From: an uncultured Holophagae bacterium
Lineage (GTDB): Bacteria; Acidobacteriota; Thermoanaerobaculia; Thermoanaerobaculales; Sulfomarinibacteraceae
Length of the DNA stretch: 64,000 bases
Direction of reading: 5' to 3'
NCBI GenBank assembly: GCA_963797055.1
Contig: CAWCOD010000011.1
Coordinates: 37,538 to 101,537, forward strand
This document shows, in pieces, positions 2,936-61,475 of the stretch. Position numbers and translations under genes: made by a program. Each line of letters begins with the position of its first letter. Within the stretch, counting starts at the first letter, position 1. The notes under the pieces are model-generated. The model saw nothing but the letters and a program-made list of their open reading frames with translations. It had not been told where the DNA came from and ran no database searches.

Positions 2936-3109
2936 TGTAGCACGGCCGTCTCGGCTGCAGAGACACCGAAGAATTTTGAATTCTCAAGTTTGAATTCTGA
3001 ATTCCACCCACCCGGAAGAGGTGGGGTGGGAACTCAACACTGAGAATTTAGAATTAAGAACTCAGAACTCAGCACCGTCCAGTTGCAGGCCAAAGGCCCG
3101 CTCCACAAC
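2936..3109. repeat. Nested palindromic element, copy 1: REP-like ends enclosing inverted 7-mer tracts around a CCACCCACCCGG core
   Basis: Collinear with 6578-6752: tgtagcacggccgtctcggctgca, (GAATTYT)n, core, inverted 7-mers, gcaggccaaaggcccgctccacaa. Confidence 0.85.
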
Positions 3110-3113
3110 ACAA

Positions 3114-3144
3114 GAAAACGGCCGCCCGAGGGCGGCCGTTTTTC
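3114..3144. terminator. Bidirectional intrinsic terminator
   Basis: AAAACGGCCGCCC-ga-GGGCGGCCGTTTTT perfect stem with A/T tails, between convergent genes. Confidence 0.85.
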
Positions 3145-3159
3145 GCAGATTATCTCGTC

Positions 3160-5478
3160 TCAGAAGTGGAGTACCAGCTCCGCGCCGATGGTCCGGGGTT
3201 CGTTCAGCATCCCGGTGAGGTTGTTGAAGTCGATGGCGCCGCGGTTGATCTTCGTATCGAAGAGATTGCGGCTGAACAGCGCCACCTCGTGCTTGCCGCG
3301 AGCAAAGGCGTAGCCGATCCTGAGACCAACCTCGAAGCTGTCGGCCTTGAACTCCGCCGCCTCATACAGTGTGAACTGCTTCTCCGAGTAGTATGCCCAG
3401 TCCAGGGAGGCAAAAAACTTCTTGTAGGTCGGTGAGGACCGCCAGTTGATGATGCCGTTGAAGATCCAGTCCGGCGCGTGGGGCAGGCTGTTGCCGTCGA
3501 TATAGGCGAGACCGTCCACCACCGGGTCGAGCACCGTGCAGCCGCCGCCGCAGGGGGCCACCGTGAGGTTCGGATCCTTGATCTTGGTGGGGTTGTAGGA
3601 CAGACCGAAGGTGGTCAGGAAGTGGGCCGACGGCGTCCACTCGATATCGGTTTCAAAGCCGTAGCCCTCGGTCGTGTCCACGTTGAGCAGGGTAGCGATG
3701 TTGTACTCGCCGCCCACAGCCGAGACCTGCTGGCCGTCCATCTCGAAGTAGTAGCCGGTGAGGTTGAAGCGCAGCTTGTTCTGGGCCAGGATGGTTCGGA
3801 GGCCGAGCTCGGCCGAGATGATCTCCTCGGAATCAGCCACGGTGACGCAGTTGGTGGCGGGGTTGAGGCCGAACTCGAAATCCGCACAGAACAGGATCCG
3901 ACCCTGGATCGACGGCGCCCGGTAACCGGTGGCGAGCCGGCCGTAGATGTTGACGTTGGGATTGGCGGCATAGGTGAGGCTGAGATTCCAGCTGACGTTG
4001 TCGTCGTCCACCGACTCGGTGATCGGCCCATCGGTGGGCGTCTGGAAGGTCGGCCAGGGCCGCTCAGCCTCAAAGTCGCGCTCGTCGTGGGAGTAGCGGA
4101 GGCCGGCCACCGCGTTCCACTTGGCCGACAGTTGGAAGTCCAGCGAACCGAAGAAGGCGTAGGAGGTGGAATCCTGCTTCTGGAAGGCGAAGCCGTCTTG
4201 CGGGTTGCCCTCATCCAGCGAGTTGTAGCTGTAGGAGTCGACCTGCAGGTCCTCGTTGAACCAGAAGCCGCCCAACAGCCAGTTGACTTTCTCGCCCGAG
4301 GTGCTGTGGAGCCGGAGTTCCTGGGTCCACTGGTCGAGGTAGGGGATGCCGTCCGCCGACTCCGAATTGAAGGGAATGAAGCCGGGGCCATAGTTGCCCT
4401 CGCCGAGGAACGCGGCGCCGTAGCCGCCGTCGATGTCGCCGCGGCTGTACATGTCGTCGAGGCTCTCGTAGCCGGTGATGGAGGTGAGGGTGACGTCCTC
4501 CCACTTGTACTCCATCCGAACCAGGCCGCCGAGCGAGCTGGCTTCCTGCTTGTTCAACCCGTCGTAATAGACCTCGTCCCACTCGAGCGAGTCCACCAGA
4601 TTGTTGGTGCCCTGCTCGATGATGTTGGCGCGGAAGAGACGGGCGGTGCCGTCGATCTCCCAGCCGTGAACGTTGACGAGCGCGTCAAATCGCTCCGACG
4701 GCTCCCACAGGAGCTGCAGCCGCCAGGCGGTATTGTCGTATCCGCCGAGGGCGTCGTTCTCGCCGGTGTAGAGGTTGTCCACCCAGTCGCTGCGGCTCTG
4801 GTAGAGGAAGGAGGCGCGGGCCGAGAAGTGTTTGCCCAGCGGCCCTCCCACCGCGCCGGTCAGGTCCACGGTATCGTAGGTGCCGTAGGACATCCGCGCG
4901 AAGGCGTCGAACTCACGGGTGGGTTTGCGGGTCTCGAACTTGACCACGCCCGCTGTGGTATTGCGGCCGAAGAGGGTGCCCTGCGGTCCGCGCAGCACCT
5001 CGACCCGGTCGAGATCGAAAAGGGGCTGTGCCTTGACCATCGGGTTCTCGAGGACGATTTCGTCCACCACCATGGACACCGGCTGCGACGCGTTGAGATC
5101 GAAGTCCGAGTTGCCGAGGCCGCGGATGTAGAACCGCGGGAAGACCTTGCCGAAGGACGATTCGAGGATCAGGCTGGGCACTCGGGCGGACAGGATCCGC
5201 ACGTCCGGCGAGCCCGCGGAGATGACCTCGAGGTCCTCGCCCGAGAGGGTCGAGACCGACATCGGCACGTCCTGGATGTCCTGCTCGATCTTCTGGGCGG
5301 TCACGGTGATCTCGCCGACCATGGCCTCCCACTCAGGGGGAATATCGCCCTCCTCTTCCATCGTGGTGTCCGTCTCGTCAGCGGGAACATCCTGCGCATA
5401 AGAAAGGCCGCCGAAGGCGACCAGAAGCAGGGCAAATACCGCGATACTCAAAAGGCGCCCGAGTGTTGCGTGTGCCAT
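3160..5478 (-). CDS. TonB-dependent outer-membrane receptor
   Basis: Signal peptide, EITVTAQK TonB-box-like segment, plug motif RVEVLRGPQGTLFGRNTTAGVV, C-terminal Phe. Confidence 0.95.
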   Translation of the reverse strand: MAHATLGRLLSIAVFALLLVAFGGLSYAQDVPADETDTTMEEEGDIPPEWEAMVGEITVTAQKIEQDIQDVPMSVSTLSGEDLEVISAGSPDVRILSARVPSLILESSFGKVFPRFYIRGLGNSDFDLNASQPVSMVVDEIVLENPMVKAQPLFDLDRVEVLRGPQGTLFGRNTTAGVVKFETRKPTREFDAFARMSYGTYDTVDLTGAVGGPLGKHFSARASFLYQSRSDWVDNLYTGENDALGGYDNTAWRLQLLWEPSERFDALVNVHGWEIDGTARLFRANIIEQGTNNLVDSLEWDEVYYDGLNKQEASSLGGLVRMEYKWEDVTLTSITGYESLDDMYSRGDIDGGYGAAFLGEGNYGPGFIPFNSESADGIPYLDQWTQELRLHSTSGEKVNWLLGGFWFNEDLQVDSYSYNSLDEGNPQDGFAFQKQDSTSYAFFGSLDFQLSAKWNAVAGLRYSHDERDFEAERPWPTFQTPTDGPITESVDDDNVSWNLSLTYAANPNVNIYGRLATGYRAPSIQGRILFCADFEFGLNPATNCVTVADSEEIISAELGLRTILAQNKLRFNLTGYYFEMDGQQVSAVGGEYNIATLLNVDTTEGYGFETDIEWTPSAHFLTTFGLSYNPTKIKDPNLTVAPCGGGCTVLDPVVDGLAYIDGNSLPHAPDWIFNGIINWRSSPTYKKFFASLDWAYYSEKQFTLYEAAEFKADSFEVGLRIGYAFARGKHEVALFSRNLFDTKINRGAIDFNNLTGMLNEPRTIGAELVLHF

Positions 5479-5620
5479 GGGTTCCTCCCCCCAAGATTGT
5501 GATTAACTCGCCACGAAGAATAGCAGTCCATTCGGCCGGGCGCCACCTGATCTTGGGGGTGCGAAGTCGGCGTGAAGAGAGCCGATATCAGTATCGATCT
5601 CGCCCCCTGAAAACGCGACA

Positions 5621-5713
5621 CGAGTTCCGAGTTCCGAGTTTCGCATTGGACGGCTGGTGTTTTTCGAATTTCGCATTTCACATTTCGAAATTGCCGGGCG
5701 GGTGGCTGGCGGG
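5621..5713. repeat. 7-mer tandem tracts (CGAGTTC/CGAATTT/CGCATTT) next to a reverse CCACCCGCCCGG core
   Basis: cgagttccgagttccgagtttcgcatt and ttcgaatttcgcatttcacatttcgaaatt, followed by ccgggcgggtgg. Confidence 0.7.
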
Positions 5714-5794
5714 CCCCCATGTAGAATGACGGCCGCAGAAGACAATGCCGCTGAGGGCTCTTCCGATCGGTGTGCGGCGGAAAACGGAGCATCC

Positions 5795-6505
5795 ATGGCC
5801 ACCAAACACATGAACGCCAACCCCGGGAACTTTGCGGCGACCGTCCTGATGCCGGGTGATCCGCTGCGAGCCAAATACATCGCCGAAACCTTCTTCACCA
5901 ATCCTCGCCAGGTCACCGACGTCCGCAACATGCTCGGGTTCACCGGGGAGTACGAGGGTGTGCCGGTGTCGGTCATGGCCCACGGCATGGGCATCCCGTC
6001 GGTCTCCATCTACGTCACCGAGTTGATCCGGGACTACGGGGTCCGGAAGATCATCCGGGTAGGCAGCTGCGGCACGGTCCATCCTTCGGTCCGGCTGCGC
6101 GACATCATCATCGCCATGGCGGCCTCCACCGACTCGGGGGTGAACCGGATGCGCTTCGCCGGCCACGATCTGGCCGCCGTCGCCGACTTCGGATTGCTCC
6201 GAAGCGCGGTGCGCGCCGCCGAGCGACACGACATCCGATTCCACGTCGGCAACATCTTCTCCGCCGACCTGTTCTACCCGGCGCAGCCCGAGATCTTCGA
6301 TTTGATGGAACGCTACGACATCCTCGCCGTGGAAATGGAGACCGCGGGGCTATACACCTTGGCCGCCGAGCATGGCGTCCAGGCACTGGCCATCTGCACG
6401 GTGTCGGACCACATCCGCACCGGCGAGGCGCTGTCGTCCGATGAGCGCCAGACGACCTTCGACGAGATGATCTCGTTGGCCCTGGGCGCCGCGATCGGCG
6501 TTTAG
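5795..6505 (+). CDS. deoD: Purine-nucleoside phosphorylase DeoD
   Basis: [49 protein letters not shown] 5795 with GGAG RBS. Confidence 0.96.
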
Positions 6506-6506
6506 A

Positions 6507-6562
6507 CCCACAGATCACACAGATCCTCCGAGTCACGGCGCCGCCGCTCGCTCAGGATGACA
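6507..6562. repeat. CCCACAGATCACACAGAT motif fused to a reverse TGTCATCCTGAGCGAG..GGATCT REP-like palindrome
   Basis: The 18-mer recurs exactly at 38548-38565. The 16-mer recurs inverted at 9307-9322. Confidence 0.75.
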
Positions 6563-6577
6563 GGGGGTGGCGGGCTG

Positions 6578-6752
6578 TTGTGGAGCCACCGTCCCGGCTG
6601 CACGGCACCGCGGAATTTTGAATTCTGAATTTTGAGTTCTGAGTTCCAGCCACCCATCCGTTACAGGCGGGGTTGGGTGGGAATTCAACACTGAGAATTG
6701 AGAACCAAGAACTCCGCGCTCTCCGGTCGCAGGCCGGAGGCCCGCTCCACAA
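6578..6752. repeat. Nested palindromic element, copy 2
   Basis: Same order of parts as 2936-3109. Confidence 0.85.
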
Positions 6753-6829
6753 TGCCTTGTCCGGATGGACGGGCCTCTTCGTGCTTCATCGGCGATGTAG
6801 GGTATTCTCACCGCAGTCGTGAGGATCAA

Positions 6830-7453
6830 ATGACCTATCGAATCGTCGACAACTACCACCGCCAGCGGCACTTTGATTTCTTCCGCTCCTATGGCAACCC
6901 GTTCTACGCCGTCACCGTGGAACTCGACATCACCAATCTCAAGGCCTTCACCGATGCCGCTGGATACCCTATCTATCTCAACCTGTGCTACTTCTTCACC
7001 CGCGGCATGCAACCGGTTGAGGACTTCAGGTACCGCTTGCGCGACGGTGGAATCGTCCTTTATGACCGGCTCGAGGTGGCCGCGACCCTGCCGTCGCCCG
7101 ATGGGCTGTTCAGCTTCGGTTACTTCGGCTACGACGATGACTGCGCGAGTTTCAACCGTCGAGCCGAGGAGGTCAACGCCGCGATCCGACGACGGACCAC
7201 CCTCGCTCAATCCGACGAGACCAATCAGATTCTGTACACCAGCCTCCCCGCGGTCCGTTTCACCGGCTTCACCCACGCCACTCCGGAGGACACAACGGAC
7301 GGTCGGCCGCGGGTGGCTTTTGGTCGCTTCTTCAACAGGGACGGCCGGCTGATGGTCCCGGTGGGTCTCGAGGTCAACCACATCTTCATCGACGGCAACA
7401 CCGTGGGTGAACTCCTGGAGGAGGTCCAGAGTGTCTACGATGACCCGAGTTGA
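6830..7453 (+). CDS. Chloramphenicol acetyltransferase (CatA)-like acyltransferase
   Basis: RQRHFDFF, TVELDIT, SLPAVRFTGF, PRVAFGRF, VNHIFIDG (catalytic HxxxDG). GAGG RBS before ATG 6830. Confidence 0.85.
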   Translation: MTYRIVDNYHRQRHFDFFRSYGNPFYAVTVELDITNLKAFTDAAGYPIYLNLCYFFTRGMQPVEDFRYRLRDGGIVLYDRLEVAATLPSPDGLFSFGYFGYDDDCASFNRRAEEVNAAIRRRTTLAQSDETNQILYTSLPAVRFTGFTHATPEDTTDGRPRVAFGRFFNRDGRLMVPVGLEVNHIFIDGNTVGELLEEVQSVYDDPS

Positions 7454-8617: not shown

Positions 8618-8641
8618 AGAGAGAGGCCGGCGCCTTTGTGG

Positions 8642-8850
8642 CGCGGCCGTCGCCCCAATGCGCTCCCCCGCGGTTACTCGCGGCCTTCCAGTTCCGCCCT
8701 TCGGGCTTCGCCGTGACAGGTCGGCAGCGGTGACCAGCCGTCACCAGCGAGCATGTCGGTGCCAGGCACCGCCGCAGATGTGTCGACCTCGTACTACGAC
8801 TCGATTTCGACGGTGCCTGGCACCGGCCCACGCGTTCGCAATGCGCCCGA
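8642..8850. repeat. Composite intergenic repeat (GCGCTCCCC module, inserted CTTCGCCGTGACA module, GGTGACCAGCCGTCACC palindrome, paired GGTGCCWGGCACC palindromes)
   Basis: Modules shared with 22541-22666, 25075-25430 and 43130-43715. Confidence 0.88.
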
Positions 8851-8897
8851 GGACCGTGATTCTTTGATCGCGCGTGGTGTGAGCTATGCTCTCGGTC

Positions 8898-9287: not shown

Positions 9288-9306
9288 TCCCCCAGCCGCC
9301 CCGGTT

Positions 9307-9340: not shown

Positions 9341-9423
9341 GGGCGGGGGAGACACCCGAATACGGAAAGCGAAATCTAGAGATTGTTCGAACGCTCTTGT
9401 TTCTCCGGACGTTTCCTTGTTCC

Positions 9424-22280: not shown

Positions 22281-22342
22281 CACCACCGAGCAGTGTAGGG
22301 GTTCTCACACCACAAGGCAATTCGAGCGGGTGTGGAGGATGT

Positions 22343-22443
22343 AGACGTTGAACGTTGTAAGTTGAACGTTCAACGTTGGGTTCATCCGGATTTCCGTGAG
22401 ATGGACAGTGGTTGAATTTGAAATGTGAAATGAGGAGTGAATG
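22343..22443. repeat. 7-mer tandem tracts (AACGTTG; GAAATGT)
   Basis: acgttgaacgttgtaagttgaacgttcaacgtt and ttgaatttgaaatgtgaaatgagg. Confidence 0.65.
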
Positions 22444-22540
22444 TGCCATCGCGCCGCAGCAATGTGCGGTTCTGGAGCCTACCAGCGGTAGGCCCAGCGC
22501 CAGCGGCGGGGGACAGCGATCAGCGGCAGGTTGATTCCGA

Positions 22541-22666
22541 CGCGCCCATCTCCCCTGTGCGCTCCCCGAGGTTACGCGCGGCCTTCCGGCTCCGCCCTCC
22601 AGCCTTCGCCGTGACAAGCCGGCCGCGGTGACCAGCCGTCACCAGCGAGTGACCAGTGGCCGGGTC
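22541..22666. repeat. Composite repeat (filled form), overlapping the 3' end of the membrane-protein gene
   Basis: Near-identical to 25191-25282 plus an inserted module. Confidence 0.88.
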
Positions 22667-25016: not shown

Positions 25017-25074
25017 GGCCCCCGGACTGTAGGGAGTATGGCCTCTGGCGTCAAACTGGGAAGTTGCTCGCGTT

Positions 25075-25430
25075 CCGATCTCCATGTCGGTGCCAGGCAC
25101 CGGCGCAGATGTATCGACCTCGTACTGCGATTCGATTTCGACGGTGCCTGGCACCGGGTGAGCGCGTTCGCTTCGATTCGTCGAACCCAACGCGCCGATT
25201 CTCCCTGTGCGCTCCCCGAGGTGACTCGCGGCCTCCGGCCGCGGTGACCAGCCGTCACCAGCGAGTGGCCAGTGGCCGGGTCACCTCCCACCACAACCCT
25301 CCCGGCCCAGGCCACAATCGCTGCCGCCGGCAGGTTGCCCCCTTGAACAATGTTGGGACTCAAGGCGCTGAATGACTCATTTTGTGAGCCCCAGCATTTT
25401 AAAAGACGGCACGCCCGTTCGTCGCGCCCT
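25075..25430. repeat. Composite intergenic repeat (paired GGTGCCWGGCACC, GCGCTCCCC, GGTGACCAGCCGTCACC and co-varying hairpin modules)
   Basis: Largely an inverted counterpart of 43255-43625. Confidence 0.9.
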
Positions 25431-25496
25431 CTCCCTCCACGCAAAGGGACGGTCAGCCCACGGCTCAGTGCTCCCTGAACGTGGGGTGCGGCTAAC

Positions 25497-34335: not shown

Positions 34336-35721
34336 CTATTTCCGGGAAGCGTCGTCGTCGGCGAGACCGAGCCGGTGAATCATCTCGTTGAGGGTGGTGG
34401 GACTGAGCTGGAGCAGCTTCGCCGCCCGCCGTTGAACCCCCTGGGACTGCGCCAGGGCCTCACGAATGAGACGACCCTGGTAGTCGGCCACGGCCTCACG
34501 GAAGTCCACTCCCTCCGCCGGGATTTCATCCATGGGCAACTCGAGACGCCCCCCGCCACGCATCGCTTGAGGCAATTCGTCGAGATCGATCGTGCTGTCG
34601 AGACAGAGCACCACGGCTCGTTCGACGGCGTTCTCCAGCTCCCGGACATTACCGGGCCACCTGTATTCGGCGAGTGCGTCCATAGCCTGGGGGGTGAATC
34701 CCTCCACATCACGATCGTTCTCCACAGCGTACATCTTGAGGAAGTGGGCCGCCAGCAGCGGGATATCCTCCCTGCGGTCCCGCAGCGGCGGCATCTCGAT
34801 GCCGATGACGTTGAGGCGGTAATACAGGTCCTCGCGGAATCGACCTTCCTCCACCTCGCGCCAGAGATCCACGTTGGTGGCAGCCACGAGCCGCACATCC
34901 ACCGACATGGAGTCCACCCCACCAACCCGACGGATCTCGCGCTCCTGGATGACCCGCAGCAGCTTGGTCTGGGTCTCCAGTGAGACAGTCCCCACTTCAT
35001 CGAGGAAGAGCGTGCCCCCGTGCGCCGCCTCGAACAGACCCTTGCGGCTCGATACGGCACCGGTGAACGCGCCCTTGACATGGCCGAATAGGGTGGACTC
35101 GAGCAGCTCGGACGGAATGGCGCTGGTATGCACCGGAACGAAGGGGCCATCGTGCCGAGAGCTCAGGCGGTGGACCGCTCGCGCCACGAGTTCCTTGCCG
35201 GTTCCCGACTCACCCGAGATCAGGATGTTGGTTCGCGCCGGCGCCGCCCGCCGAATCAGTTCGAAGGTTTCCTGGATCCGTCGACCCGTGCCGACAATCT
35301 CCCCCATCCCATCGAGCCGGCTTCGCAGCAACAGGTTTTCCACCTGCAAGTGACGTCGCTCCGCAGCTCGCCGCACAAGATGGAGGACCTCTTCGTTCTT
35401 GAAGGGCTTGGGGACATAGTGGAAAGCCCCCTGGCGCATTGCCTCGATGGCCGATTCCACCGACGAGTATGCTGTGATCACAACCACGGGGAGATGGGGA
35501 TCGTGGGCCCTGATCTCGGGCAAGATTTCGAGGCCCGAACGATCCGGCAACATCAGATCGAGCAGCACCACGTCGACCTCTTCGTCGCGGAGGACACGCA
35601 GGCCCTCCTCGGCGGTCATTGCGGGGTGGTAGTCAAAGCCATTATTGACCAGCAGGGTTCCGAGCACGTCCTGCAGGACGGGCTCGTCGTCGATTACGAG
35701 AACGCTACCGGCTCCGGGCAT
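34336..35721 (-). CDS. Sigma-54-dependent response regulator (NtrC family)
   Basis: Receiver domain, GESGTGKE, GAFTGA, WPGNVRELEN, Fis-type HTH. Confidence 0.96.
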   Translation of the reverse strand: MPGAGSVLVIDDEPVLQDVLGTLLVNNGFDYHPAMTAEEGLRVLRDEEVDVVLLDLMLPDRSGLEILPEIRAHDPHLPVVVITAYSSVESAIEAMRQGAFHYVPKPFKNEEVLHLVRRAAERRHLQVENLLLRSRLDGMGEIVGTGRRIQETFELIRRAAPARTNILISGESGTGKELVARAVHRLSSRHDGPFVPVHTSAIPSELLESTLFGHVKGAFTGAVSSRKGLFEAAHGGTLFLDEVGTVSLETQTKLLRVIQEREIRRVGGVDSMSVDVRLVAATNVDLWREVEEGRFREDLYYRLNVIGIEMPPLRDRREDIPLLAAHFLKMYAVENDRDVEGFTPQAMDALAEYRWPGNVRELENAVERAVVLCLDSTIDLDELPQAMRGGGRLELPMDEIPAEGVDFREAVADYQGRLIREALAQSQGVQRRAAKLLQLSPTTLNEMIHRLGLADDDASRK

Positions 35722-38384: not shown

Positions 38385-38725
38385 AAGTCAGGGAGCAGGG
38401 AGTAGGGGGCAGTCGGCAGGCCCTCCATCCGCCCTCGCTATGGGGCGATGAGGCGATGAGGCTATGGGGCCATAAGATCCCGAGCCCGAGCCCGTTTCCG
38501 TTGCCGACTGCAGACCGAAGAACAAAAGCCCGCTTCCGCCCCGCAAGCCCACAGATCACACAGATGACGGGCTGAAAGGCTCGGGCCGCCCTGGCCAATT
38601 CATCGCGCCCTCCCGTCCTTCCCCCCTTCCCCACTTCTCACCCAGCCACTGGGCCGTGACGTGATTCCAGCCGATTCAGGTGAGTGGGAATTTTTGAATT
38701 CCGAATTCCGCATTTCGAATTGGGC
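38385..38725. repeat. Mosaic of short tandem tracts with 7-, 8-, 6- and 9-nt periods
   Basis: GGGAGCA/GGGAGTA, GGCGATGA/GGCTATGG, CCCGAG/TCCGTT, CACAGATCA and GAATTCC tracts in succession. Confidence 0.7.
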
Positions 38726-43111: not shown

Positions 43112-43127
43112 GGGACCGATAGTATAG

Positions 43128-43715
43128 CCGCCCACCCGGAGAGGGATGTGCGCTTGATGGGCGGGCGTTCCACTCCGGGCACCTTGAGGTTGAAAGTTGA
43201 AAGTTAAACGTTGAACGTTCCCACCGACCCACCCGGATCGTGAAAGGCACAATGGGCGCGATGATCGGGCGTGCCGTCTTTGACATTGTTGGGAATTCAG
43301 GGGACGTGATCACTCAGTAGGTGGGTCCCAACAATGTCAAAGGGGGCAACCTGCCGGCGGCAGCGGTTGTGGCGTGGCCGTGTGCGGCGGCCATGTCCGA
43401 TCCTGTACGCAGGATCAGAGGCCTTACGGCCACCCGCTGGTGACGGCTGGTCACCGCGGCCACCGGCCGCGAGTAACCTCGGGGAGCGCGACGGGGAGAT
43501 CGGCGCGACGAAATCAGTGAATCTAAGCGAACGCGCTCACCCGGTGCCAGGCACCGTCGAAATCGAGTCGTAGTGCGAGGTCGACACATCTGCGGCGGTG
43601 CCTGGCACCGACATGGAGATCGGAATACGAGGGGGGCAACCTGCCGGCGGCAGCGGCCGTGGCCGTGTGCGCCGGCCACGTCCGATCCTGTACGCAGGAT
43701 CAGAGGCCTTGCGGC
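43128..43715. repeat. Largest composite intergenic repeat, with an internal ~85-bp direct duplication
   Basis: Core motif, (TTGAAAG)n, co-varying hairpin, GGTGACCAGCCGTCACC, GCGCTCCCC and paired GGTGCCWGGCACC. 43342-43430 resembles 43632-43715. Confidence 0.9.
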
Positions 43716-50784: not shown

Positions 50785-50877
50785 GTCAGTATCTCAGATC
50801 CTTCCCCGGGCCCTGCCCCCGTAGAACGTTATACGTCGGTCAGGGCTTCCGGGTCACAGTGTGGAGGGCGGCGAACA

Positions 50878-51050
50878 GCCGCCCGCCCACCCATTGCGAA
50901 TTGCGAGATTGCAGATTGCAGATTGCAGATTCCCCCGCCCACCCGGACCTTGTGTTCGCGCGATGATCGGGGCGTGCCCTCTCCCGATCCGGGAGGGTGG
51001 GCGGGAACGTTCAACGTTTAACGTTCAACATTGAACTTTCAACTCTTGAC
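50878..51050. repeat. Composite repeat: core motifs with (TTGCAGA)n and inverted (AACGTTC)n tracts
   Basis: Shares parts with 61081-61260 and 43180-43275. Confidence 0.85.
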
Positions 51051-51133
51051 GTTCGACCTGGTGATCGGCCCACGGCTCTCCACCAACCGGTCTGGGGTAC
51101 GATGAGGATTGACCTTCAGAAAGGGGATCGTTG

Positions 51134-52207: not shown

Positions 52208-52271
52208 AAGATGGCGAGCGCGGCATCCGGGACCTGTAGAGGCTGACCGTCGATTGTCGCGAGCGGCTGAG

Positions 52272-52486
52272 GCTGGATGCTGGATACTGGATGCTCGATG
52301 CTGGATGCTCGATGCTCCACCCGAGTGGTGACGGCGCCAGGAGTTGATTCCCCGGACCCGCGGCTTACAGCTCTGGCGTGACACTGAAACCACAATTCGG
52401 CCGTTCCGTCTCGGATCTTGCATCTTGAATCTTGAATCTTGGATCTTGAATCTTGGATCTTGGATCTGGGCGGGCGGGCGGGCGGA
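52272..52486. repeat. 7-mer tracts (CTGGATG)x6 and (TCTTGRA)x7 plus (GGGC)n
   Basis: Directly visible tandem units at 52272-52317 and 52416-52467. Confidence 0.85.
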
Positions 52487-53863
<1,377 letters not shown>

Positions 53864-53892: not shown

Positions 53893-54192
53893 CCCCCTCC
53901 CACCCACCCAATTCGAAATTCGAAATTTCCGCCGCCCACCCGGCCAGAGGCTATGGGGCTATGAAATCCCCCGCCCACACCGTTACACGTTGCAAGTTGA
54001 AGGTTGAAAGTTCCCCCTTCCACCCGGAAGGAGCGGGCGCGTTGATCGGGCGTGCCGGGTATGACGTTGTGCGGTCGATGTTGACGAGAGATCCACAGCC
54101 ATAGGGGCCGCACAACGTCATACCGGGCAACCTCGGGGAGCGCATCGGGGAGATGGGCGCGCTGAAATCAGCCTATCAAATCGAACACGCAG
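53893..54192. repeat. Composite repeat: array of core motifs with different tandem tracts, then the co-varying hairpin and GCGCTCCCC module
   Basis: Four C-rich cores separated by (TTCGAAA), (GGCTATG) and (GTTGAAR) tracts. 17-bp perfect stem 54058-54124. Confidence 0.88.
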
Positions 54193-54193
54193 G

Positions 54194-55360
54194 TCAATCC
54201 TGGCGGCCGATGGCAGAGACGATCCAAGCCGAAAGCGACTCGAGCTTGAGCATCCCCCGCTGGGCGGCCTCCACCTCGCCGCAGCAAACCAGTGCATCCT
54301 CAAGCTCGTTGTCCGAGTACAGCGAGGCGCCCCGGAAGAGCTGACCGAGGGTCCATGGGGTGGGCAGCTTGCCCTTCTTTGCCAGCGGCGTCGGGCCATC
54401 CTCTTCGAGACGCTCGATGATCACCGGCGCGATACTGGAGGAGAACACACTTTGGTACCAGCGATCACGGCCGGTGCGGTCGGGATCAAGCTGGTCGACG
54501 AGGTCTGCGGCCACGGCCGTCCGCCGCAGATCGAGCATTTGCACCAGGAGATTGGAAACCTGGCCGCACAGGATGGCACCGATCCGGTCGGCCGCGACCG
54601 CCCGCCCCTGCCAGTCACGCACCGCCGACCCCGCCGCCGCAGCGCCGATCAGATCCAGCAGTGGTTTTGGCTCCCGTTGCAGCACGGCGTCCCGAACCAC
54701 CTCGAGGGATCGTTCGCGGGGAAAGACCAACCGCCGCACCAGTTCCTCATCCACCCCGGACGCTCCCGCCGCAGCGCCGAGGGTGCGTGCCTCGGCCACC
54801 AAACGCCGTGGGTCGAATCCGAGGCGATCGAGCAGCAGCGCTTCGGCGGCAGGCTCGAATCGAGTGTCGCCGGCCACCTTGCGGAGCAGCCCGGCCAGCA
54901 CCCGCCGCTGGTCGCCCGACAGCACCACGTCTTCCCAGGGCTTGGGACGTTCGGGCAGCGGGACCCATCGATAGCCGCCGGCGTCTTTCACGGCCTTCAC
55001 CAGCGGCCCCTTGGGTTGGCGACCGCACCAGGCACCCATCACCAGTCCAGTACCCTCGGGCAATCCCTCGGTGATCACCTCGATCAGCACCTCCGGGTCA
55101 GTTGGTTTGGGATCGTTGAGTGCACCCGCAGGGGCCGCAGCGCCCAACCATCCCCGTATTTCAGAAACCACCAGAACCCGGGTTGGCGCGAACAGGGACG
55201 GTGACCGGAGCTCCAACGCCAGGTCCTCGGGCGACGCGTCGTCGGACAGCCGTTCGACCTCAGCCCCACCAAGGGCGTCACAGGCCGCGGCAATGGCGTC
55301 GTTGAGGCTTTCCTCGACGAGGTAGTCGTTGCTGGACGCGATCAAGGCGAGCCGAGACAT
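54194..55360 (-). CDS. Divergent DNA polymerase III delta subunit (HolA)-like protein
   Basis: NDYLVEE, LRSPSLFAPTRVLVV, FEPAAEALLLDRLG, GVDEELVRRLV. Confidence 0.65.
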   Translation of the reverse strand: MSRLALIASSNDYLVEESLNDAIAAACDALGGAEVERLSDDASPEDLALELRSPSLFAPTRVLVVSEIRGWLGAAAPAGALNDPKPTDPEVLIEVITEGLPEGTGLVMGAWCGRQPKGPLVKAVKDAGGYRWVPLPERPKPWEDVVLSGDQRRVLAGLLRKVAGDTRFEPAAEALLLDRLGFDPRRLVAEARTLGAAAGASGVDEELVRRLVFPRERSLEVVRDAVLQREPKPLLDLIGAAAAGSAVRDWQGRAVAADRIGAILCGQVSNLLVQMLDLRRTAVAADLVDQLDPDRTGRDRWYQSVFSSSIAPVIIERLEEDGPTPLAKKGKLPTPWTLGQLFRGASLYSDNELEDALVCCGEVEAAQRGMLKLESLSAWIVSAIGRQD

Positions 55361-55430
55361 GTTCAGACCTGGACTACTGCGACGTCGGCGTGACAGGCGG
55401 TCGCCGAGGATCGCTCGTCAGCTGTCCGGC

Positions 55431-55784: not shown

Positions 55785-55836
55785 CGGTCGCATCCTCCAG
55801 GCGACACCGAACATCGCGGTCGTCGCGAACCAACCA

Positions 55837-57372: not shown

Positions 57373-58376
57373 GGACTCTCCCGTTCTTCGATCAACTCAA
57401 ACAGCATACCAATCAGTCGATCCACGCCCTCACCGGTCACCGCCGAAATGGCGCAGTGATCCACCCCGTGGTGTGCCGCCAACTCGGACAGCTCGGCCAT
57501 GGCTTGGTCGCGATCGCCCACCGCGTCCAACTTGGTGCCCACGAGCAGCCACGGTCGAGCGTGGAGGGTCTCGGAGTAGGCCTCGATCTCATTGCGAATG
57601 GTGACCACCCTGTCCGCCATGGATGACTCTTCGGCCAGATCCACGAGGTGGGCCAAGGCGCGACAGCGCTCCACGTGGCGCAGAAACTGGATACCGAGCC
57701 CGGCACCTTCGTGTGCGCCTTCGATGAGCCCCGGAATGTCAGCCGCAACCAACGATCGCCATTCCTCCGATGGCTGTACAACCCCGAGATAGGGCTCGAG
57801 GGTGGTGAACGGGTAATCGGCGATCTTCGGCCGGGCCGCCGAGATCCGTGACAACAGGGTGGACTTGCCGGCGTTGGGTCGTCCCACCAGCCCAAGATCC
57901 GCCATCAGTTTGAGCTCCAGCTCGAGCTCGACTTCCTCACCGACGCCCCCGGGATCCGCCTTCCGTGGCGCGCGGTTGGTCGAGGTCTTGAAGCGAGCGT
58001 TCCCCCGTCCCCCGTCCCCCCCTCTGGCGACGATCAGCCGTTGGCCGTCGTCGACGAGATCTCCCATGATCTCGTTCCGCGAAAGTTCGCGGACAACCGT
58101 TCCCGGCGGCACCGGCAGCACCATGTCAGATCCACCAGCCCCGGTCTTGTTCGATCCCTGGCCGTGACGGCCGTTCTCGGCCCTCACGATGCGGCGGTGA
58201 TGGATGTGGAGCAGGGTGTTGTAGCCCCCATCCACCTCCAGGATCACGTGGCCCCCTCGGCCACCGTCGCCACCATCCGGACCGCCGCGCGGTACAAACT
58301 TTTCTCGACGAAAGGACACGCACCCGTTGCCACCGTTACCTGCACGCACGGTCAGCCGAGCGGAGTCAATGAACAT
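57369..58376 (-). CDS. obgE: GTPase ObgE
   Basis: AGNGGNGCVSFRREKFVPRGGPDGGDGG, PNAGKST, YPFTT, DIPG. Confidence 0.98.
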   Translation of the reverse strand: MFIDSARLTVRAGNGGNGCVSFRREKFVPRGGPDGGDGGRGGHVILEVDGGYNTLLHIHHRRIVRAENGRHGQGSNKTGAGGSDMVLPVPPGTVVRELSRNEIMGDLVDDGQRLIVARGGDGGRGNARFKTSTNRAPRKADPGGVGEEVELELELKLMADLGLVGRPNAGKSTLLSRISAARPKIADYPFTTLEPYLGVVQPSEEWRSLVAADIPGLIEGAHEGAGLGIQFLRHVERCRALAHLVDLAEESSMADRVVTIRNEIEAYSETLHARPWLLVGTKLDAVGDRDQAMAELSELAAHHGVDHCAISAVTGEGVDRLIGMLFELIEERESP

Positions 58377-58409
58377 GGGTCGGCCGAATGGGGGTCAACT
58401 TTGCGTAAC

Positions 58410-58440
58410 GCGAAACGCGGCCCCGAATGTGGGCCGCGTG
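58410..58440 (-). terminator. Hairpin/terminator after rpmA
   Basis: ACGCGGCCC-7 nt-GGGCCGCGT followed by a short T run on the minus strand. Confidence 0.6.
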
Positions 58441-58481
58441 ATGGGATTTCGGTCTGTCCGAAGGCGTCATGCCGGCTGGAC

Positions 58482-58736
58482 TCAGTTGACAATCACACTG
58501 ATGAACCGACCGATTCTGCCTCGGTTCTGGAACTTGACCTGACCCTCAGAGGTGGCAAAAAGAGTGTCGTCCCTGCCGCGCTTGACGTTGCCGCCGGCCT
58601 TGAAGCGAGTGCCCCGCTGGCGAACGAGAATGGTCCCGGCCGTCACCTGCTGGCCGTCACCGACCTTGGTTCCGAGACGTTGCGCGTTCGAGTCGCGCCC
58701 GTTACGACTGGAGCCCTGTCCTTTCTTGTGAGCCAT
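58482..58736 (-). CDS. rpmA: 50S ribosomal protein L27
   Basis: [24 protein letters not shown]. Confidence 0.99.
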
Positions 58737-58744
58737 ACGTCCTC

Positions 58745-59068
58745 CTAGGCCTCGATGGCCTCGACCCGCACCCGGTAATAATCCTGCCGGTGCCCCTGGG
58801 TCCGTTTGTAGCCCTTGCGGCGCTTCTTCTTGAAAACGATGATCTTGTCACCGCGCACCGGAGCGACCACCTGGCCGCGCACCGTCACACCGTCCACCAC
58901 CGGATCACCGATGCGCACGGCGTCGCCGGTGGATACCAGCATCACCCGATCAAAGAGCAACGCGTCTCCGGACTTGAGGCCCGAAGTGGTCCGCTCTACC
59001 AGAAGCTCGTCGCCGGGACTGACCCGGTACTGCTTCCCGCCATGTTCCACAACTGCGTAGTCGCTCAT
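58745..59068 (-). CDS. rplU: 50S ribosomal protein L21
   Basis: [39 protein letters not shown]. Confidence 0.98.
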
Positions 59069-59135
59069 TGCACACCTCTCCCTCGTACGAGGGACCGGTG
59101 TTGTACCAGATTGGCGGTGTTGTGTCAATTTTTCC

Positions 59136-59460
59136 CCCTCCCTCCCGGTGAGCTGTAAGCAGTTGGCAGTAGGCTGTTGACCCTCCCGTCCTCCCCGCGG
59201 GCGTGTTGTTCGGAGGTGCCTGGCATCCCGATTCGCCGAAGTCGTCAAACGAATTCGTCTCGTTGAGTCGAATTGGTGTGCCTGGCAGCCTCACGGGAAG
59301 CGAGATGAAGATTGGGACGCGACGAAGGCTCCCCGCGCGTTTGCTTCGATTCGCTGATCCCTGCGCGCCACTCTCCCTCTCCGGGCAGGAGCGACTGTCA
59401 ACTGTCGACTCTCTCCATGAATGCCAGGTCGGCAGTTCCTCAAGTCCTCACAATCCCGGG
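59136..59460. repeat. Degenerate composite repeat
   Basis: 7-mer tracts, GGTGCCTGGCA variants and the GCGTTTGCTTCGATTCG module. 59210-59228 is an exact inverted match to 61442-61460. Confidence 0.7.
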
Positions 59461-59929
59461 CTGTCGGGGGGCGGGGCGAATCCCGACGACGTGGGCGCTG
59501 GCCGGGAGGCCCATCCTGCTCGCGGCTGCGACGGAACTGACGCCGGATCTCCTGGATCTCCTGCCACTGTTGGTCGGTGAGCACCCCCCGAACGGCGAGC
59601 AACATCTCGAAGCGTTCCGACTCCAGTGCCCGTCGTGCGTCCTGCAGACCGGCAAAGGCGGCTCGCGCGGCGGCAGATTCGAAGTCCGAGTTCGCCACGA
59701 GGTTGGCCAGTTCGAGCTCCGCTTTCTTCACGCCGGCGTTGAGGTCGATCATCCGGCGGGCGTGTTCGTAGACCTCTGTCCGGATCTCCTCCCGCTGGGC
59801 GTCGGTCAGCTCGAGCCGCTCCGCCAGCCGTTCGTTGTCCCACCACTTGCCCGGGGGAAGGTTGAAGTCCTGCGCCCCCACCGTCACGGCCAGGACCAGG
59901 ATGAAGAGGGTCAATACGGTGTTTTTCAT
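59291..59929 (-). CDS. Spy/CpxP-like periplasmic protein (C-terminus uncertain, reads into a repeat)
   Basis: Signal peptide, PPGKWW, LELTDAQR, VLTDQQW (LTxxQ). Confidence 0.82.
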   Translation of the reverse strand: MKNTVLTLFILVLAVTVGAQDFNLPPGKWWDNERLAERLELTDAQREEIRTEVYEHARRMIDLNAGVKKAELELANLVANSDFESAAARAAFAGLQDARRALESERFEMLLAVRGVLTDQQWQEIQEIRRQFRRSREQDGPPGQRPRRRDSPRPPTARDCEDLRNCRPGIHGESRQLTVAPARRGRVARRDQRIEANARGAFVASQSSSRFP

Positions 59930-59949
59930 GGTTGCCTCCCGCGCGGCCT

Positions 59950-60423
59950 TCATGAGACGTCGCCTGCAAGATAGCTCTCGAGCTCTTCCATGCCCGGGTC
60001 GATCACCTCGAAACCCGGGATGGAGTCGTCGGCCAACAACTCGTCCACCTCGGCCAGGATTTCCTCCACGGAGATGTCGGCCCCGTTGGAGGCGATCTCG
60101 GTGTGCTCGGGGCGCAGCAGCCCGACCACCGCGACCACGATCAACGCCGCGGCCGCCGCCAGCAGCGGCCGGAGCCAGGACTTCGGCTGCTTGTGCTGGA
60201 CCGCCTGTCGCTCCGGCAGCCGATGGAGGACCGCCGCCCGCTGGGCTTCCCAATCCGGCTCGCCGACGGCCATCGAGTGGCGTCTGAGCCGAATCAACTT
60301 CTCCATGGTCGCCACCTTGTGGCGGCAGTCCAGGCATGAATCGAGATGCCCACGCATATCAGGGGCGAGCTCGGCGCCGGCCACCGCGCCCGCGATCTGT
60401 TCATCGTCCAGGTGCCTATTCAT
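59950..60423 (-). CDS. Membrane anti-sigma factor with zinc-finger (HxxxCxxC)
   Basis: HLDDEQ..HLDSCLDC plus a single TM. Coupled to the sigma gene. Confidence 0.85.
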   Translation of the reverse strand: MNRHLDDEQIAGAVAGAELAPDMRGHLDSCLDCRHKVATMEKLIRLRRHSMAVGEPDWEAQRAAVLHRLPERQAVQHKQPKSWLRPLLAAAAALIVVAVVGLLRPEHTEIASNGADISVEEILAEVDELLADDSIPGFEVIDPGMEELESYLAGDVS

Positions 60424-60998
60424 CTCGCATCTCCCAACTCGGCCCGCAATCTGTGCACCGCACGGTGTAGCTGCGTCTTGACCGTCCCAACGTGCACGCC
60501 GAGCGCGCCCGCGATCTCCTCGAGTTCGAGTTCCGCGTAGAACCGAAGACGGAAGATCTCTCGCTGCCGCTCCGGCAGGTCCCGCTCGAGGAGGGCCAGG
60601 CGATCAACCGCCTGCCGCTGCATGGTCCGGTCCAACGGTCCGGCCGTATCATCGGCAAGCTCGGTGAGGATGTCGTTTCCCTCTTCTTCACCGACAACAT
60701 CGGCTTTCAGACCCTGGCGGCGGCGGCGGCGAAGTTCGTCCAGGCTGGTGTTGATGGCGATCCGCGTCAGCCAGGTGGTGAAGGCCGATCTGCCGTCGAA
60801 TAACTCGAGGTTGGTATAGGCCTTCACCAAGGTGTCCTGGGCGGCCGCATCGGCATCATCCGTTCCGACGTACTGACGACACACCCGCCATACTCGTTGC
60901 TGATGGCGCACCACCAGCTCCGAGAAAGCGTCGCGATCCCCGTTTCGAGCCCGCATGACGAGGGCGTCGTCGGACTCCGAGGGATCTCGACTGGGCAT
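60420..60998 (-). CDS. ECF sigma-70 factor
   Basis: GDRDAFSELV, AFTTWLTRIAIN, LPERQR, GTVKTQLHRA. Confidence 0.93.
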   Translation of the reverse strand: MPSRDPSESDDALVMRARNGDRDAFSELVVRHQQRVWRVCRQYVGTDDADAAAQDTLVKAYTNLELFDGRSAFTTWLTRIAINTSLDELRRRRRQGLKADVVGEEEGNDILTELADDTAGPLDRTMQRQAVDRLALLERDLPERQREIFRLRFYAELELEEIAGALGVHVGTVKTQLHRAVHRLRAELGDAR

Positions 60999-61077
60999 AC
61001 TTACTGCTCGCAACACGTTGGTTTGACGAAACCCGGCCGTTCGCGTTGACAGTCTTCCATCGCCTTCCAGGGTACCG

Positions 61078-61475
61078 CCACCCCCTCCCACCCTCCCATT
61101 GCGAATTGCGAATTGCAGATTGCAGATTCCCCCACCCACCCGGAGCGAAGTGGGAGGACGTGCGACTCCAGGCACCTTGAAGTTGAAAGTTGAAAGTTAA
61201 ACGTTGAACGTTTCCACCCACCCTCCCGGGTCGTGAAAGGGCGCGATGGGCGGGCGTGCCGTCTTTAACAATGTTGGGGCTCGCCAACTGAGTCATTCAG
61301 CCCTTTGGGTCCCAACATTGTTAAAGGGGGCAACCTCGGGTAGCGCTGTGGGGAGATGGGCGCGGTGAGGGGCCGGAGGCTCGATTGTGGCCGGCTTGGG
61401 GTCCTTCATTGCGCCCCGGTTCTTTGTCGCGCTTCCCGCGAGGATGCCAGGCACCTCCGAGAGACGCGCCCTCGG
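61078..61475. repeat. Composite repeat: cores, (TTGCAGA)n, (TTGAAAG)n, co-varying hairpin, GCGC/GGGAGATGGGCGCG and GGATGCCAGGCACC modules
   Basis: 61130-61335 is collinear with 43128-43352. Confidence 0.9.

Follow-up and report, generated by a model that had tools for sequence, protein, structure and literature searches.

The window analysed here is a 64,000-nt stretch from the 5.04-Mb assembly of an uncultured Acidobacteriota bacterium (91.8% complete, labelled G000), and its intergenic regions carry small repeated modules joined into the elements and composites listed in Table 1. All four motifs typed out in the initial annotation were far more frequent than in shuffled sequence, and the modules are therefore real: GGTGCCWGGCACC was matched nine times at up to one mismatch (shuffle mean 0.22), a 23-mer four times exactly (0 expected), GCGCTCCCCGAGGT five times (0.16) and GCGTTCGCTTMGATTC three times (0.15). 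Thirteen sites had been named as reusing one kit of modules. BLAST of the window against its own genome showed many copies of 11 of the 13: depth peaked at 60 for the site at 59.3 kb, at 76 for that at 52.4 kb, at 24-25 for those at 2.9 and 6.6 kb, and at 85-221 for the remaining seven; the site at 38.5 kb is weak (peak 17), and the one at 5.6 kb, as its depth is 0-2, holds only low-copy 7-mer tracts. No mobilising HUH gene lies inside the window, as the annotation had stated.

Table 1. Repeat elements and composites of the window (depth, BLAST depth against the own genome)
Position	Strand	Content	Remarks
2914..3108	.	GTAG-REP, tandem 7-mer words, C-box/G-box palindrome, inverted words, second REP	depth <=25; fam0, fam6, fam9; same type as both RAYT-gene flanks outside the window
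6578..6752	.	Second REP / 7-mer-word / box foldback element	fam6, fam9, fam23
8641..8854	+	Composite: fam2 piece, fam16 (37-bp loop insert), fam33 hairpin, 75-bp doublet with right extension	depth <=199; the fam33 hairpin contains the 23-mer
8752-8826		Doublet of 13-bp palindromes, 75 bp	inside 8641..8854
22330..22666	+	Word array and fam36 (22330-22487), then fam2 - fam16 - fam33 (22529-22666)	motif matches, BLAST depth, family models
25067..25438	+	Composite: fam14, doublet 25083-25156, fam2 25170-25221, insert, hairpin slot, fam1/13 end
about 25223-25334		fam33/20-type insert, 112 bp	within 25067..25438
25333-25339, 25408-25415		Slot anchors GGTTGCC and GGCACGCC around 68-nt hairpin cassette	within 25067..25438
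38443..38541	.	Short hexamer and heptamer word arrays	weak kit member, depth <=17
43127..43715	-	Largest composite; word array then fam13/fam1 at one end	depth <=221
43267-43275, 43345-43351		GGGCGTGCC and GGCAACC, with hairpin cassette between	within 43127..43715
43348-43352, 43475-43479		AACCT on both sides of fam20 unit	within 43127..43715
43543-43609		Doublet, after fam20 and fam2; then fam14 and second partial fam20 copy	within 43127..43715
50876..51057	.	C-box, ATTGCAG-type words, C-box, fam1, G-box, AACGTTC-type words	depth <=168
52269..52492	.	Two 7-mer word arrays (fam7), G-rich box at end	depth <=76
53895..54195	-	Composite: word arrays and boxes, fam1, hairpin cassette, fam2, fam18	cassette stem differs yet remains complementary
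59185..59338	+	Second doublet family fam21: two GTGCCTGGCA-type boxes, inner hairpin between	depth <=60; 64 genome loci
61075..61476	-	Composite: C-box, ATTGCRA words, box, GTTGAAA words, fam1, hairpin cassette, fam2, fam18, fam45, partial fam21 box	depth <=215

The repeat population of the genome

The window is a local sample of about 35 small repeat families genome-wide, whose module pieces have about 20-330 copies each; the family borders come from our own segmentation and clustering and are noisy. Non-overlapping nhmmer loci numbered 207 for the doublet, 277 for fam2, 331 for fam1, 123 for the hairpin, 84 for fam20, 64 for fam21 and, after two models were merged, 217 for the GTAG-REP. 16-mers present at least five times cover 2.9% of the genome. 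Using crude ORF-based gene calls, which leave 18.7% of the genome non-coding, 127,391 of 151,524 repeat bases (84%) are non-coding, in keeping with the description of a multi-family, REP/BIME-like set of small non-coding repeats. The statement that the modules build most long intergenic regions was too strong, as with these gene calls modules made of such 16-mers occupy 10 of the 23 window gaps of at least 100 bp and six of the 11 that reach 300 bp; across the genome, 423 of 1066 gaps in this longer class hold them. No strand bias relative to GC skew was detected in any of 12 families (best p = 0.033, uncorrected); lagging-strand insertion of the IS200/IS605 type would predict such a bias.

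Order and probable nesting of the modules

The modules had been described as reused in different order and orientation. This applies to whole composites, which occur on either strand, but not to the inside of a composite, where 447 oriented neighbour types were counted among 2531 adjacencies as against 1483±15 in 200 shuffles. A single one of the four possible arrangements accounts for at least 90% of cases in 26 of the 41 frequent family pairs, and some adjacencies are almost uniform (fam2/fam4, 68/69; fam4/fam14, 74/75; fam2/fam20, 40/40). The order runs word array, box, hairpin slot, fam2, palindrome doublet, and the long composites at 25, 43 and 61 kb have a common backbone. Instead of being freely shuffled, the modules thus follow a strict order and polarity, which is best read as nested insertion at fixed points.

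Comparison of paralogous composites gave 131 insertion-like events, which suggest that units nest at fixed places: one of 123 bp next to AACCT, one of 37 bp within the loop of a hairpin, and cassettes of hairpin or doublet type in the middle of one quasi-palindrome. The printed junctions include 21 fam20 inserts and three of its short form, fam33; AACCT or ACCT is present on both sides in 21 of these 24, the irregular rows being C12:1-557, C6:32146-32667 and C9:199178-199529. Eight of 11 fam16 inserts lie in the GCGGCC..GGCCGC loop and three in GAGCCC-type word arrays. The ten doublet-unit inserts (4 + 3 + 3 rows) lie between GGTTGCC and GGCACGCC in seven cases and are flanked by GGTTGCC on both sides in three. 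Among 219 anchor pairs the slot is empty (0-2 nt) in 15, holds 60-79 nt in 121 and 120-129 nt in 19; the 'empty' slots could be deletions of the hairpin rather than unfilled targets. The 114 unique copies of the hairpin cassette have a mean MFE of -37.9 (shuffles, -22.0), and the cassette shows double compensatory changes at pairs such as UA 60 / AU 29 / CG 12 although its median pairwise identity is only 61%.

Transposase and PF05635 genes

A link to HUH tyrosine transposases, proposed earlier, stands for two module types, the GTAG-REPs with a short RAYT gene and the GGTGCCAGG head with TIRYT-type genes; no enzyme could be matched to the framework, hairpin cassette, fam20 and fam16 units. The RAYT gene (C11:35248-36003) is situated about 1.5 kb ahead of the window's first base; its score against NF047646 is 92.6 bits (cut-off 80), and REP-plus-word elements are present on both sides of it. 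GTAG- or GTGG-headed hairpins were seen by eye on both sides in all eight RAYT loci inspected (G000 and seven orthologues). Our own models detected only four pairs of GTAG-REPs in inverted orientation at a distance of 80-300 bp, so a REPIN form of these repeats is not supported. In G021, which has doublets, no short-RAYT match was found at E<=1e-10.

Inverted repeats scoring at least 18 bound 23 of 26 long Y1 loci from six genomes and none of 40 random stretches, and their head is half of the 13-bp palindrome, GGTGCCAGG. In G006, G001 and G007 the arms start with the full palindrome, which has A at its centre in one arm and T in the other, like the doublet. The Y1 genes of G000 and its congener G004 had no ends matching the doublet beyond its first 9-10 nt, and each of the four local TIRYT end sequences occurs only 2-4 times; the doublet family is an orphan in G000, since only the head is common with genes of the assembly. 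G021 has GGTGCC ends, of the ACG type, on only one of its two long Y1 genes. No gene of the assembly has the exact ends of the doublet. Five of 17 PF05635 genes are bracketed by inverted word arrays. The word arrays are linked to PF05635, a third gene class, and not to a transposase.

Comparison with relatives

As expected from the initial annotation, presence differs among close relatives. G004 has no 53895..54195 composite, the whole block being absent from its orthologous spacer, and no 61075..61476 composite, where its spacer is about 10 bp. The spacers orthologous to both sites carry different repeats in five other relatives (99-412 bp of other repeats at the 54-kb site). The 25-kb composite matches its G004 orthologue at 289/307 positions, the 112-bp insert being in G000 only; the G004 spacer at 8641..8854 holds other modules, and that at 43127..43715 is about 584 bp long with partly different modules. 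Among 41 genomes searched, the doublet is present in four (G000 and G021 among them) and the framework-plus-hairpin unit in two.

Origin of the composites

The initial observation is thus partly confirmed and its interpretation as a whole partly supported. With moderate confidence we favour a genome-wide population of several kinds of selfish or semi-selfish DNA, piled up in tolerated gaps, mostly after gene ends. It would be a rich variant of REP/BIME-type selfish DNA, because two kinds of module correspond to the ends of single-strand transposase genes. The GTAG-headed REPs would be the cognate repeats of the single short RAYT gene, and the 13-bp-palindrome doublets would be miniatures derived from the terminal inverted repeats that bound long Y1 (TIRYT-class) genes, whose ends start with GGTGCCAGG; Y1 enzymes probably move both in trans. 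A polar framework (box, fam1, the quasi-palindrome GGTTGCC·C·GGCACGCC, fam2) would offer fixed entry points: its centre may accept one of two things, a covarying hairpin cassette of 60-79 nt or a doublet unit, AACCT beside that centre the 123-bp unit, and the hairpin loop of that unit the 37-bp unit. Since each unit carries the target of the next, composites would grow by nesting, and therefore have a fixed order and polarity together with many architectures. Tandem arrays of 6-9-nt words abut the C/G boxes, bracket PF05635 genes as inverted pairs and also form the inner part of TIRYT ends, where the C-terminal HTH of the long enzymes may read them. The remaining units, we infer, transpose rather than spread through recombination.

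It is unlikely that the repeats are instead structured elements serving the host (mRNA-end hairpins, terminators, protein-binding boxes, G-rich word arrays), selected and spread mainly by recombination or gene conversion. Repeats are enriched in convergent gaps (42%, as against 27% of tandem and 21% of divergent gaps), compensatory changes keep the hairpin stem, identity between G000 and G004 is 94% in the 25-kb composite and 84-90% in the flanking blocks, and a regulatory role has been suggested for heptamer arrays of other bacteria (PMC4692102, PMC4679880). Against this, most of 11 families are unbiased toward neighbour-gene orientation in tandem gaps, only fam21 (21 vs 6) and fam2 (44 vs 67) deviating before correction; orthologous sites in relatives are without whole composites or have replacements, an Rfam scan of the window found no family at its gathering score, and the RAYT and TIRYT gene links would be left unexplained.

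Quite improbable is a MITE-like nature of some units, chiefly the 123-bp fam20, with mobilisation not by an HUH enzyme but by a DDE-type transposase making a 4-5-bp target duplication. The AACCT or ACCT on both sides of fam20, seen in 21 of the 24 within-genome junctions and in the one G000/G004 difference, looks like a target-site duplication, and to our knowledge Y1 enzymes make none; but by eye no terminal inverted repeat was seen at the fam20 ends, and a cleavage pentanucleotide common to target and element end would give an identical picture. That the modules are deletion remnants of a single long composite element of roughly 400-600 bp, with no independent families, would agree with the fixed order and shared backbone but is very improbable, given copy numbers of 57 to 331 loci, solitary units (13 doublet and 8 fam21 chains), the differing ranges of doublet and framework among genomes, precise insert junctions that recur 8-21 times, and one slot with alternative contents.

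Comparison with known systems

REP/RAYT systems and BIME mosaics of Proteobacteria are said to have been described by Nunvar in 2010 and Ton-Hoang in 2012. The selfish population favoured here resembles them in its single short Y1 gene above the NCBIfam RAYT cut-off, in GTAG-headed short palindromes that flank this gene on both sides and recur about 200 times between genes, in orthologous RAYTs of relatives with REP versions of their own, and in repeats that cluster into mosaics and are most frequent after gene ends. Unlike in the REPtrons (Bertels & Rainey 2011, PMC3116915; Di Nocera et al. 2013, PMC3733652), the REPs here are combined with tandem 7-mer words and C/G-box palindromes, few clean REPIN doublets of the GTAG-REP were found with our models, REPs share the mosaics with several types of unit unrelated to them, and the host belongs to an uncultured Acidobacteriota lineage rather than to Proteobacteria.

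The long Y1 genes resemble the TIR-associated tyrosine transposases (TIRYT, TIRtron; subclass 2.1) as outlined in passages of PMC3733652 and Quentin et al. 2018 (PMC6006769), which already report a group specific to Acidobacteria as well as repeat families derived from TIRs (dimers, clusters). Common to both are a protein length of about 320-340 aa, a Y1_Tnp domain followed by a DnaA-C-like HTH tail, 25-33-nt inverted repeats bounding the gene, and several divergent copies per genome with private ends; the GGGGTCA heads of distant homologues agree with the GGGGWSAS-type consensus in those passages. The head in the host genus differs, being GGTGCCAGG or GGTGCCACG and often a full 13-bp palindrome, two tandem 7-9-nt words follow it, and the abundant doublet shares only this head with the assembly's genes.

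The STRR of cyanobacteria are short tandemly repeated heptamers. Together with GGGAATC of Xanthomonas (PMC4692102) and TAACTGA of Beggiatoaceae (PMC4679880), they share with the word arrays here an intergenic location, 2-10 copies of 7-nt words, several word families per genome, variable copy number and enrichment near gene ends; terms for a PF05635-type gene or a transposase are absent from the Beggiatoaceae passages searched. The arrays here differ in being welded to C/G boxes and REP or TIR heads, and in bracketing PF05635 genes as inverted pairs. ERIC and the pneumococcal BOX are small intergenic repeats of sub-modules, with larger versions formed through insertion at fixed internal sites. 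The composites share this construction, but comprise many more unit types, have hairpin loops or palindrome centres as entry points, and are linked to Y1 transposase genes.

Abundance and location of the modules

The intergenic repeats of the window belong to a genuine and unusually rich repeat system of the REP/TIR type. The modules are multi-copy throughout the source genome (5.04 Mb in 27 contigs, 63% G+C, completeness 91.8%), in which the window is C11:37538-101537. Among records retrieved with one of the genome's proteins, the nearest that bear a name are MAGs labelled Candidatus Sulfomarinibacteraceae and 'uncultured Holophagae'; NCBI assigns this family to class Thermoanaerobaculia of the Acidobacteriota. 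When the window was compared with its own genome by BLAST, peak depth was 24-221 at 11 of the 13 sites named in the initial annotation, 17 at the 38.5-kb site and 2 at the 5.6-kb site. Four typed motifs gave 9, 4, 5 and 3 matches in the window, against shuffle means of 0.22, 0.00, 0.16 and 0.15. The 16-mers with at least five copies cover 2.9% of the bases of the genome and merge into 1064 repeat regions, amounting to 229 kb including flanks. A scan of the whole window against Rfam at gathering thresholds gave no matches.

According to crude ORF-based gene calls, the non-coding 18.7% of the genome holds 127,391 of the 151,524 repeat bases, and repeats are present in 423 of the 1066 gaps of at least 300 bp genome-wide; in the window, where 23 gaps measure at least 100 bp, 10 contain them. 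The proposal that the kit builds most long intergenic regions is therefore right as to a real and large kit, but about half of the long gaps are filled and not most of them. Gaps with repeats are commonest between convergent genes (42%, versus 27% for tandem and 21% for divergent genes).

Some repeats stand apart from these modules. Those found within long ORFs of the window (Table) are probably paralogous gene segments, outside the intergenic kit. The fam25/fam37 family looks MITE-like and is not related to the window modules; its 43-nt end unit occurs at 60 loci, and in its 146-bp form an internal insert of 88-90 bp recurs (six events). Elsewhere in the genome three palindrome doublets lie in tandem, which suggests that a composite unit has been amplified locally.

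Repeat families and loci of the analysis. Locus counts for families are non-overlapping profile-search matches in the source genome (G000); C numbers are its contigs unless another genome is named.
Feature	Location	Copies	Remarks
75-bp doublet of 13-bp palindrome		207 loci	192 full copies, ends at least 90% conserved
Second doublet type (fam21)		64 loci	
GTAG-REP		217 loci	after merging two models (fam6 + fam30); 180 with the fam6 model
Hairpin cassette		123 loci	
fam1		331 loci	
fam2		277 loci	
fam20		84 loci	
fam16		57 loci	
Tandem 6-9-nt words		about ten families	
C-rich box		366 segments	
Repeats within long ORFs	window 1417-1958, 34740-35278, 52876-53350		depth 6-19
fam25/fam37 family	C11:1459-1703	and about 60 other loci	all outside the window
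Tandem doublets	C2:421099-421494	three	161 bp apart
Composite at 25 kb	window 25040-25460; G004:C9:1479830-1480138		non-coding; 94% identical, neighbouring blocks 84-90%
Spacer L066	G006:C5, orthologous to window 61.1-61.5 kb		1662 bp
Short RAYT gene	C11:35248-36003		1.5 kb before window start
Cut long-type Y1 gene L003	C2:7717-8145		
Cut long-type Y1 gene L005	C9:5028-5474		
Array upstream of RAYT orthologue	L014, about 1100-1400 (G004)		

Module families and their order

Repeat regions were cut at clustered alignment end-points to give 4881 segments. Single-linkage clustering chained 4154 of these into one component, and Louvain communities were used instead, resulting in about 35 families with at least ten members (Table); the 21-nt fam14 model, which is too short, gave no nhmmer matches. 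All modules of the initial annotation map onto these families: its 23-mer corresponds to the fam33/fam20 hairpin, GCGCTCCCCGAGGT is fam2 and GCGTTCGCTTMGATTC its extension, and the GGGCGTGCC..GGCAACC hairpin is the slot (the anchor pair at the quasi-palindrome centre of the framework) plus its cassette.

The modules had been described as shuffled, and the adjacency statistics contradict this. The 2531 adjacencies fall into 447 oriented pair types, where 200 shuffles gave 1483±15, and 35% of adjacencies belong to the 20 commonest types (6% in shuffles). For 26 of the 41 family pairs with at least ten oriented adjacencies each, a single arrangement out of the possible four accounts for at least 90% of cases. 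The modules recur in the order word array – fam1 – (fam15) – hairpin – (fam20) – fam2 – (fam18) – doublet – fam14. The 1249 chains nevertheless represent 624 distinct architectures, because parts are optional and chains concatenate. The apparent shuffling is best read as nesting at fixed entry points.

Nesting and insertion junctions

Paralogous composites (chains of modules) were scanned for blocks which touch in one copy and lie apart in another. This gave 131 events with at least three witnesses, and the junctions were mostly exact. Fam20 (123 bp) accounts for 21 inserts and its short form fam33 for three; the unit follows GGCAACCT, with AACCT or ACCT repeated on the far side, in 21 of these 24 junctions, and three rows are irregular. 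A DDE-mobilised MITE would have TIRs and a target-site duplication; in these units the repeated AACCT or ACCT resembles such a duplication, but no TIR was seen by eye. Of the 11 inserts of fam16 (37 bp), eight replace the 3-nt loop of a GCGGCC..GGCCGC hairpin inside fam20/33, and the remaining three are in word arrays. Doublet units (121-153 bp, n=10) lie between GGTTGCC and GGCACGCC in seven cases and between two GGTTGCC in three.

Among 219 anchor pairs no more than 400 nt apart, 121 enclose 60-79 nt (the hairpin cassette), 19 enclose 120-129 nt and 15 are empty (0-2 nt). An empty slot is a quasi-palindrome, whose TGCC-N-GGCA core is common to the 13-bp palindrome; such slots may be unfilled targets or deletions of the contents, and either direction fits. 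Pairs of fam1 and fam2 lying 330-4000 bp apart were also considered as the ends of an autonomous coding element, but they enclose ordinary genes and one PF05635 gene, with no such element among them.

For 114 unique cassettes the mean predicted folding energy is -37.9 kcal/mol, compared with -22.0 for shuffles (median z = -5.2), and the median pairwise identity is 61%. Several pairs of the stem show double compensatory changes (e.g. UA 60 / AU 29 / CG 12; GC 70 / CG 31), which arm-to-arm correction in a DNA palindrome could explain as well as selection.

Distribution in relatives

The doublet was found in four of the 41 genomes searched, namely the source genome, G004 of the same genus, G006 (one copy) and G021, which belongs to another genus (about 80% identity); searches of five further genomes of the same genus, with a completeness of 71-98%, did not detect it. 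The framework-plus-hairpin unit is present in two of the 41, the source genome and G004 (E<=1e-5; 20 candidates scored per genome), and G003 and G007 contain matches to pieces of fam2/fam33 (73-77% identity).

The window is collinear with G004, and orthologous gaps, whose comparison the initial annotation had suggested, differ in the presence or absence of modules. Two composites, one of 295 bp at 54 kb and one of 418 bp at 61 kb, are missing from G004, whose spacers there are about 0-20 bp. The 25-kb composite has an orthologue in G004 (289 of 307 positions identical) without a 112-bp insert, which ACCT flanks in the source genome, and the 8.7-kb and 43-kb spacers of G004 hold other module sets. 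The high identity of the 25-kb composite relative to its neighbouring blocks (Table) could be due to selection or to copy correction from other copies. From the junctions and these differences between species we infer that the units are mobile.

In five further relatives the spacers measure 99-412 bp at the 54-kb site and 116-1662 bp at the 61-kb site and are filled with their own words and boxes, and in G006 also with a probable IS; each relative has its own repeats at these sites, so gains there are not polarised. Both gaps are thus hot spots throughout the genus. The longest of these spacers, L066, contains a long ORF resembling an IS transposase.

Genes associated with the modules

Two families are linked with Y1 transposase genes of published classes, and a third with PF05635 genes. 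On the question raised in the initial annotation, which CDS families are flanked by which module, GTAG-REPs flank a RAYT, inverted word arrays flank some PF05635 genes, and long Y1 genes are bounded by arms with doublet-type heads.

The genome has six Y1_Tnp matches. One is a short RAYT gene, located outside the window, whose product reaches 29.6 bits with PF01797 (cut-off 23) and 92.6 bits with NF047646 REP_Tyr_transpos (NCBIfam cut-off 80); with this protein as query it is the single match of its type in the genome at E<=1e-10. Either side of the gene carries the element type of the 2.9-kb and 6.6-kb sites, comprising GTAG-REP, 7-mer words, C/G-box palindrome, inverted words and REP. Orthologues are present in seven relatives at 46-80% identity, and GTAG/GTGG-headed hairpins were seen by eye on both sides in all eight loci (G000, G004, G007, G006, G016, G015, G012 and G011), their sequence being species-specific. 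The GTAG palindrome is also dispersed between genes (Table). By their sequence and arrangement the short RAYT and the GTAG-REPs are a classical REP-RAYT pair. Inverted GTAG-REP pairs 80-300 bp apart number only four, a count that divergent second REPs of foldbacks may escape. Just upstream of the G004 orthologue, a stretch that by eye resembles the terminus of a PF05635-type gene is followed by a GAAGAAC-type word array.

The five other Y1 matches are long genes, with no abundant modules within 1.2 kb; their private inverted repeats were found only by a dedicated scan. The full-length proteins are about 330 aa, with Y1_Tnp (43.8 bits) and a weak DnaA-C-like HTH (Bac_DnaA_C 26.2 bits, under the Pfam cut-off of 31.5); the C-terminal part also has a match to TIGR00362 DnaA (E = 4.6e-7). 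Four loci (L001-L004) are each bounded by arms of 25-32 nt, 94-100% complementary and about 1010-1030 nt apart, in which two tandem words come after an outer head of GGTGCCAGG or GGTGCCACG. Bounding arms score at least 18 in 23 of the 26 long Y1 loci from six genomes and in none of 40 random stretches. Many arms in G006, G001 and G007 have the complete 13-bp palindrome at their start, with A at its centre on the upstream side and T on the downstream side, like the doublet. Two long-type genes, L003 and L005, are truncated, with open frames of 142-148 aa, and L003 keeps its bounding inverted repeats with the spacing of a full-length gene.

Genes of this type are already published (PMC3733652, PMC6006769) as the TIRYT/TIRtron class, subclass 2.1, for which tails of the Bac_DnaA_C or HTH kind, a group specific to Acidobacteria and repeat families derived from TIRs are described. 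A long Y1 protein, an HTH tail and bounding TIRs are likewise combined here. The majority TIR head of PMC3733652, GGGGWSAS, is not fitted in this genus with its GGTGCCAGG or GGTGCCACG heads, and that paper also gives TIRs outside the consensus; homologues from Thermoanaerobaculia and Verrucomicrobiota have GGGGTCA heads, which fit it. Because the published class has TIR-derived repeats and the arms share the palindrome head, the doublet is best read as a dimer of TIR heads in miniature. The link is incomplete: unlike the abundant doublet, each TIR of L001-L004 is present in 2-4 copies, and no gene in G000 or G004 has ends matching the doublet beyond the first 9-10 nt.

The four-helix-bundle family PF05635 has 17 matches in the genome; its ORFs are familiar from the stem-forming intervening sequences of 23S rRNA. 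Five of the 17 are bracketed by inverted word arrays of the mosaic families (ATTGCAG, GTTAAAC, GAGCCC and others), with scores that exceed those of 99% of 400 random controls, and another subgroup has longer repeated flanks in common (fam42/24 and fam48/11/36). Among the papers listed by a literature search on the family, none linked it to word arrays.

Significance and comparison with known systems

Three puzzling kinds of intergenic repeat, the palindrome doublets, GTAG-REPs and heptamer arrays, are tied here to TIRYT, RAYT and PF05635 genes, in a phylum where such repeat-gene systems are barely described. A seemingly chaotic mosaic obeys a simple nesting grammar with exact entry points, which provides a practical key to annotate and align the intergenic DNA of these metagenome-assembled genomes and offers Y1 transposase biochemistry testable targets in the palindrome centre, AACCT and the hairpin loop.

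An unlikely but broader reading is that the mosaics reflect a lineage-wide habit of small cassettes entering the loops or centres of other hairpins, and that word arrays are end or recognition sequences common to RAYT foldbacks, TIRYT genes and PF05635 genes, rather than plain microsatellites. If so, STRR-type heptamer arrays would gain a mobile-element origin, and PF05635 proteins or the DnaA-like tail of TIRYT would be readers of word arrays.

No new class of system is shown, and related kinds are already published. Single-strand transposition of the IS200/IS605 type would predict an orientation bias with respect to the replication strand; such bias was not seen against local GC skew in 12 families (best p = 0.033, uncorrected), the skew being weak and the assembly in 27 contigs. 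Most families also showed no bias relative to the direction of neighbouring genes, with deviations for fam21 (21 vs 6) and fam2 (44 vs 67; both uncorrected). BIME-type mosaics are clusters of REPs in which defined linker motifs recur in regular order; the order of the modules here is regular, but most composite units are not REPs of the RAYT. A REPIN is an inverted pair of REPs at a fixed short distance, and the doublet of 13-bp palindromes has that form.
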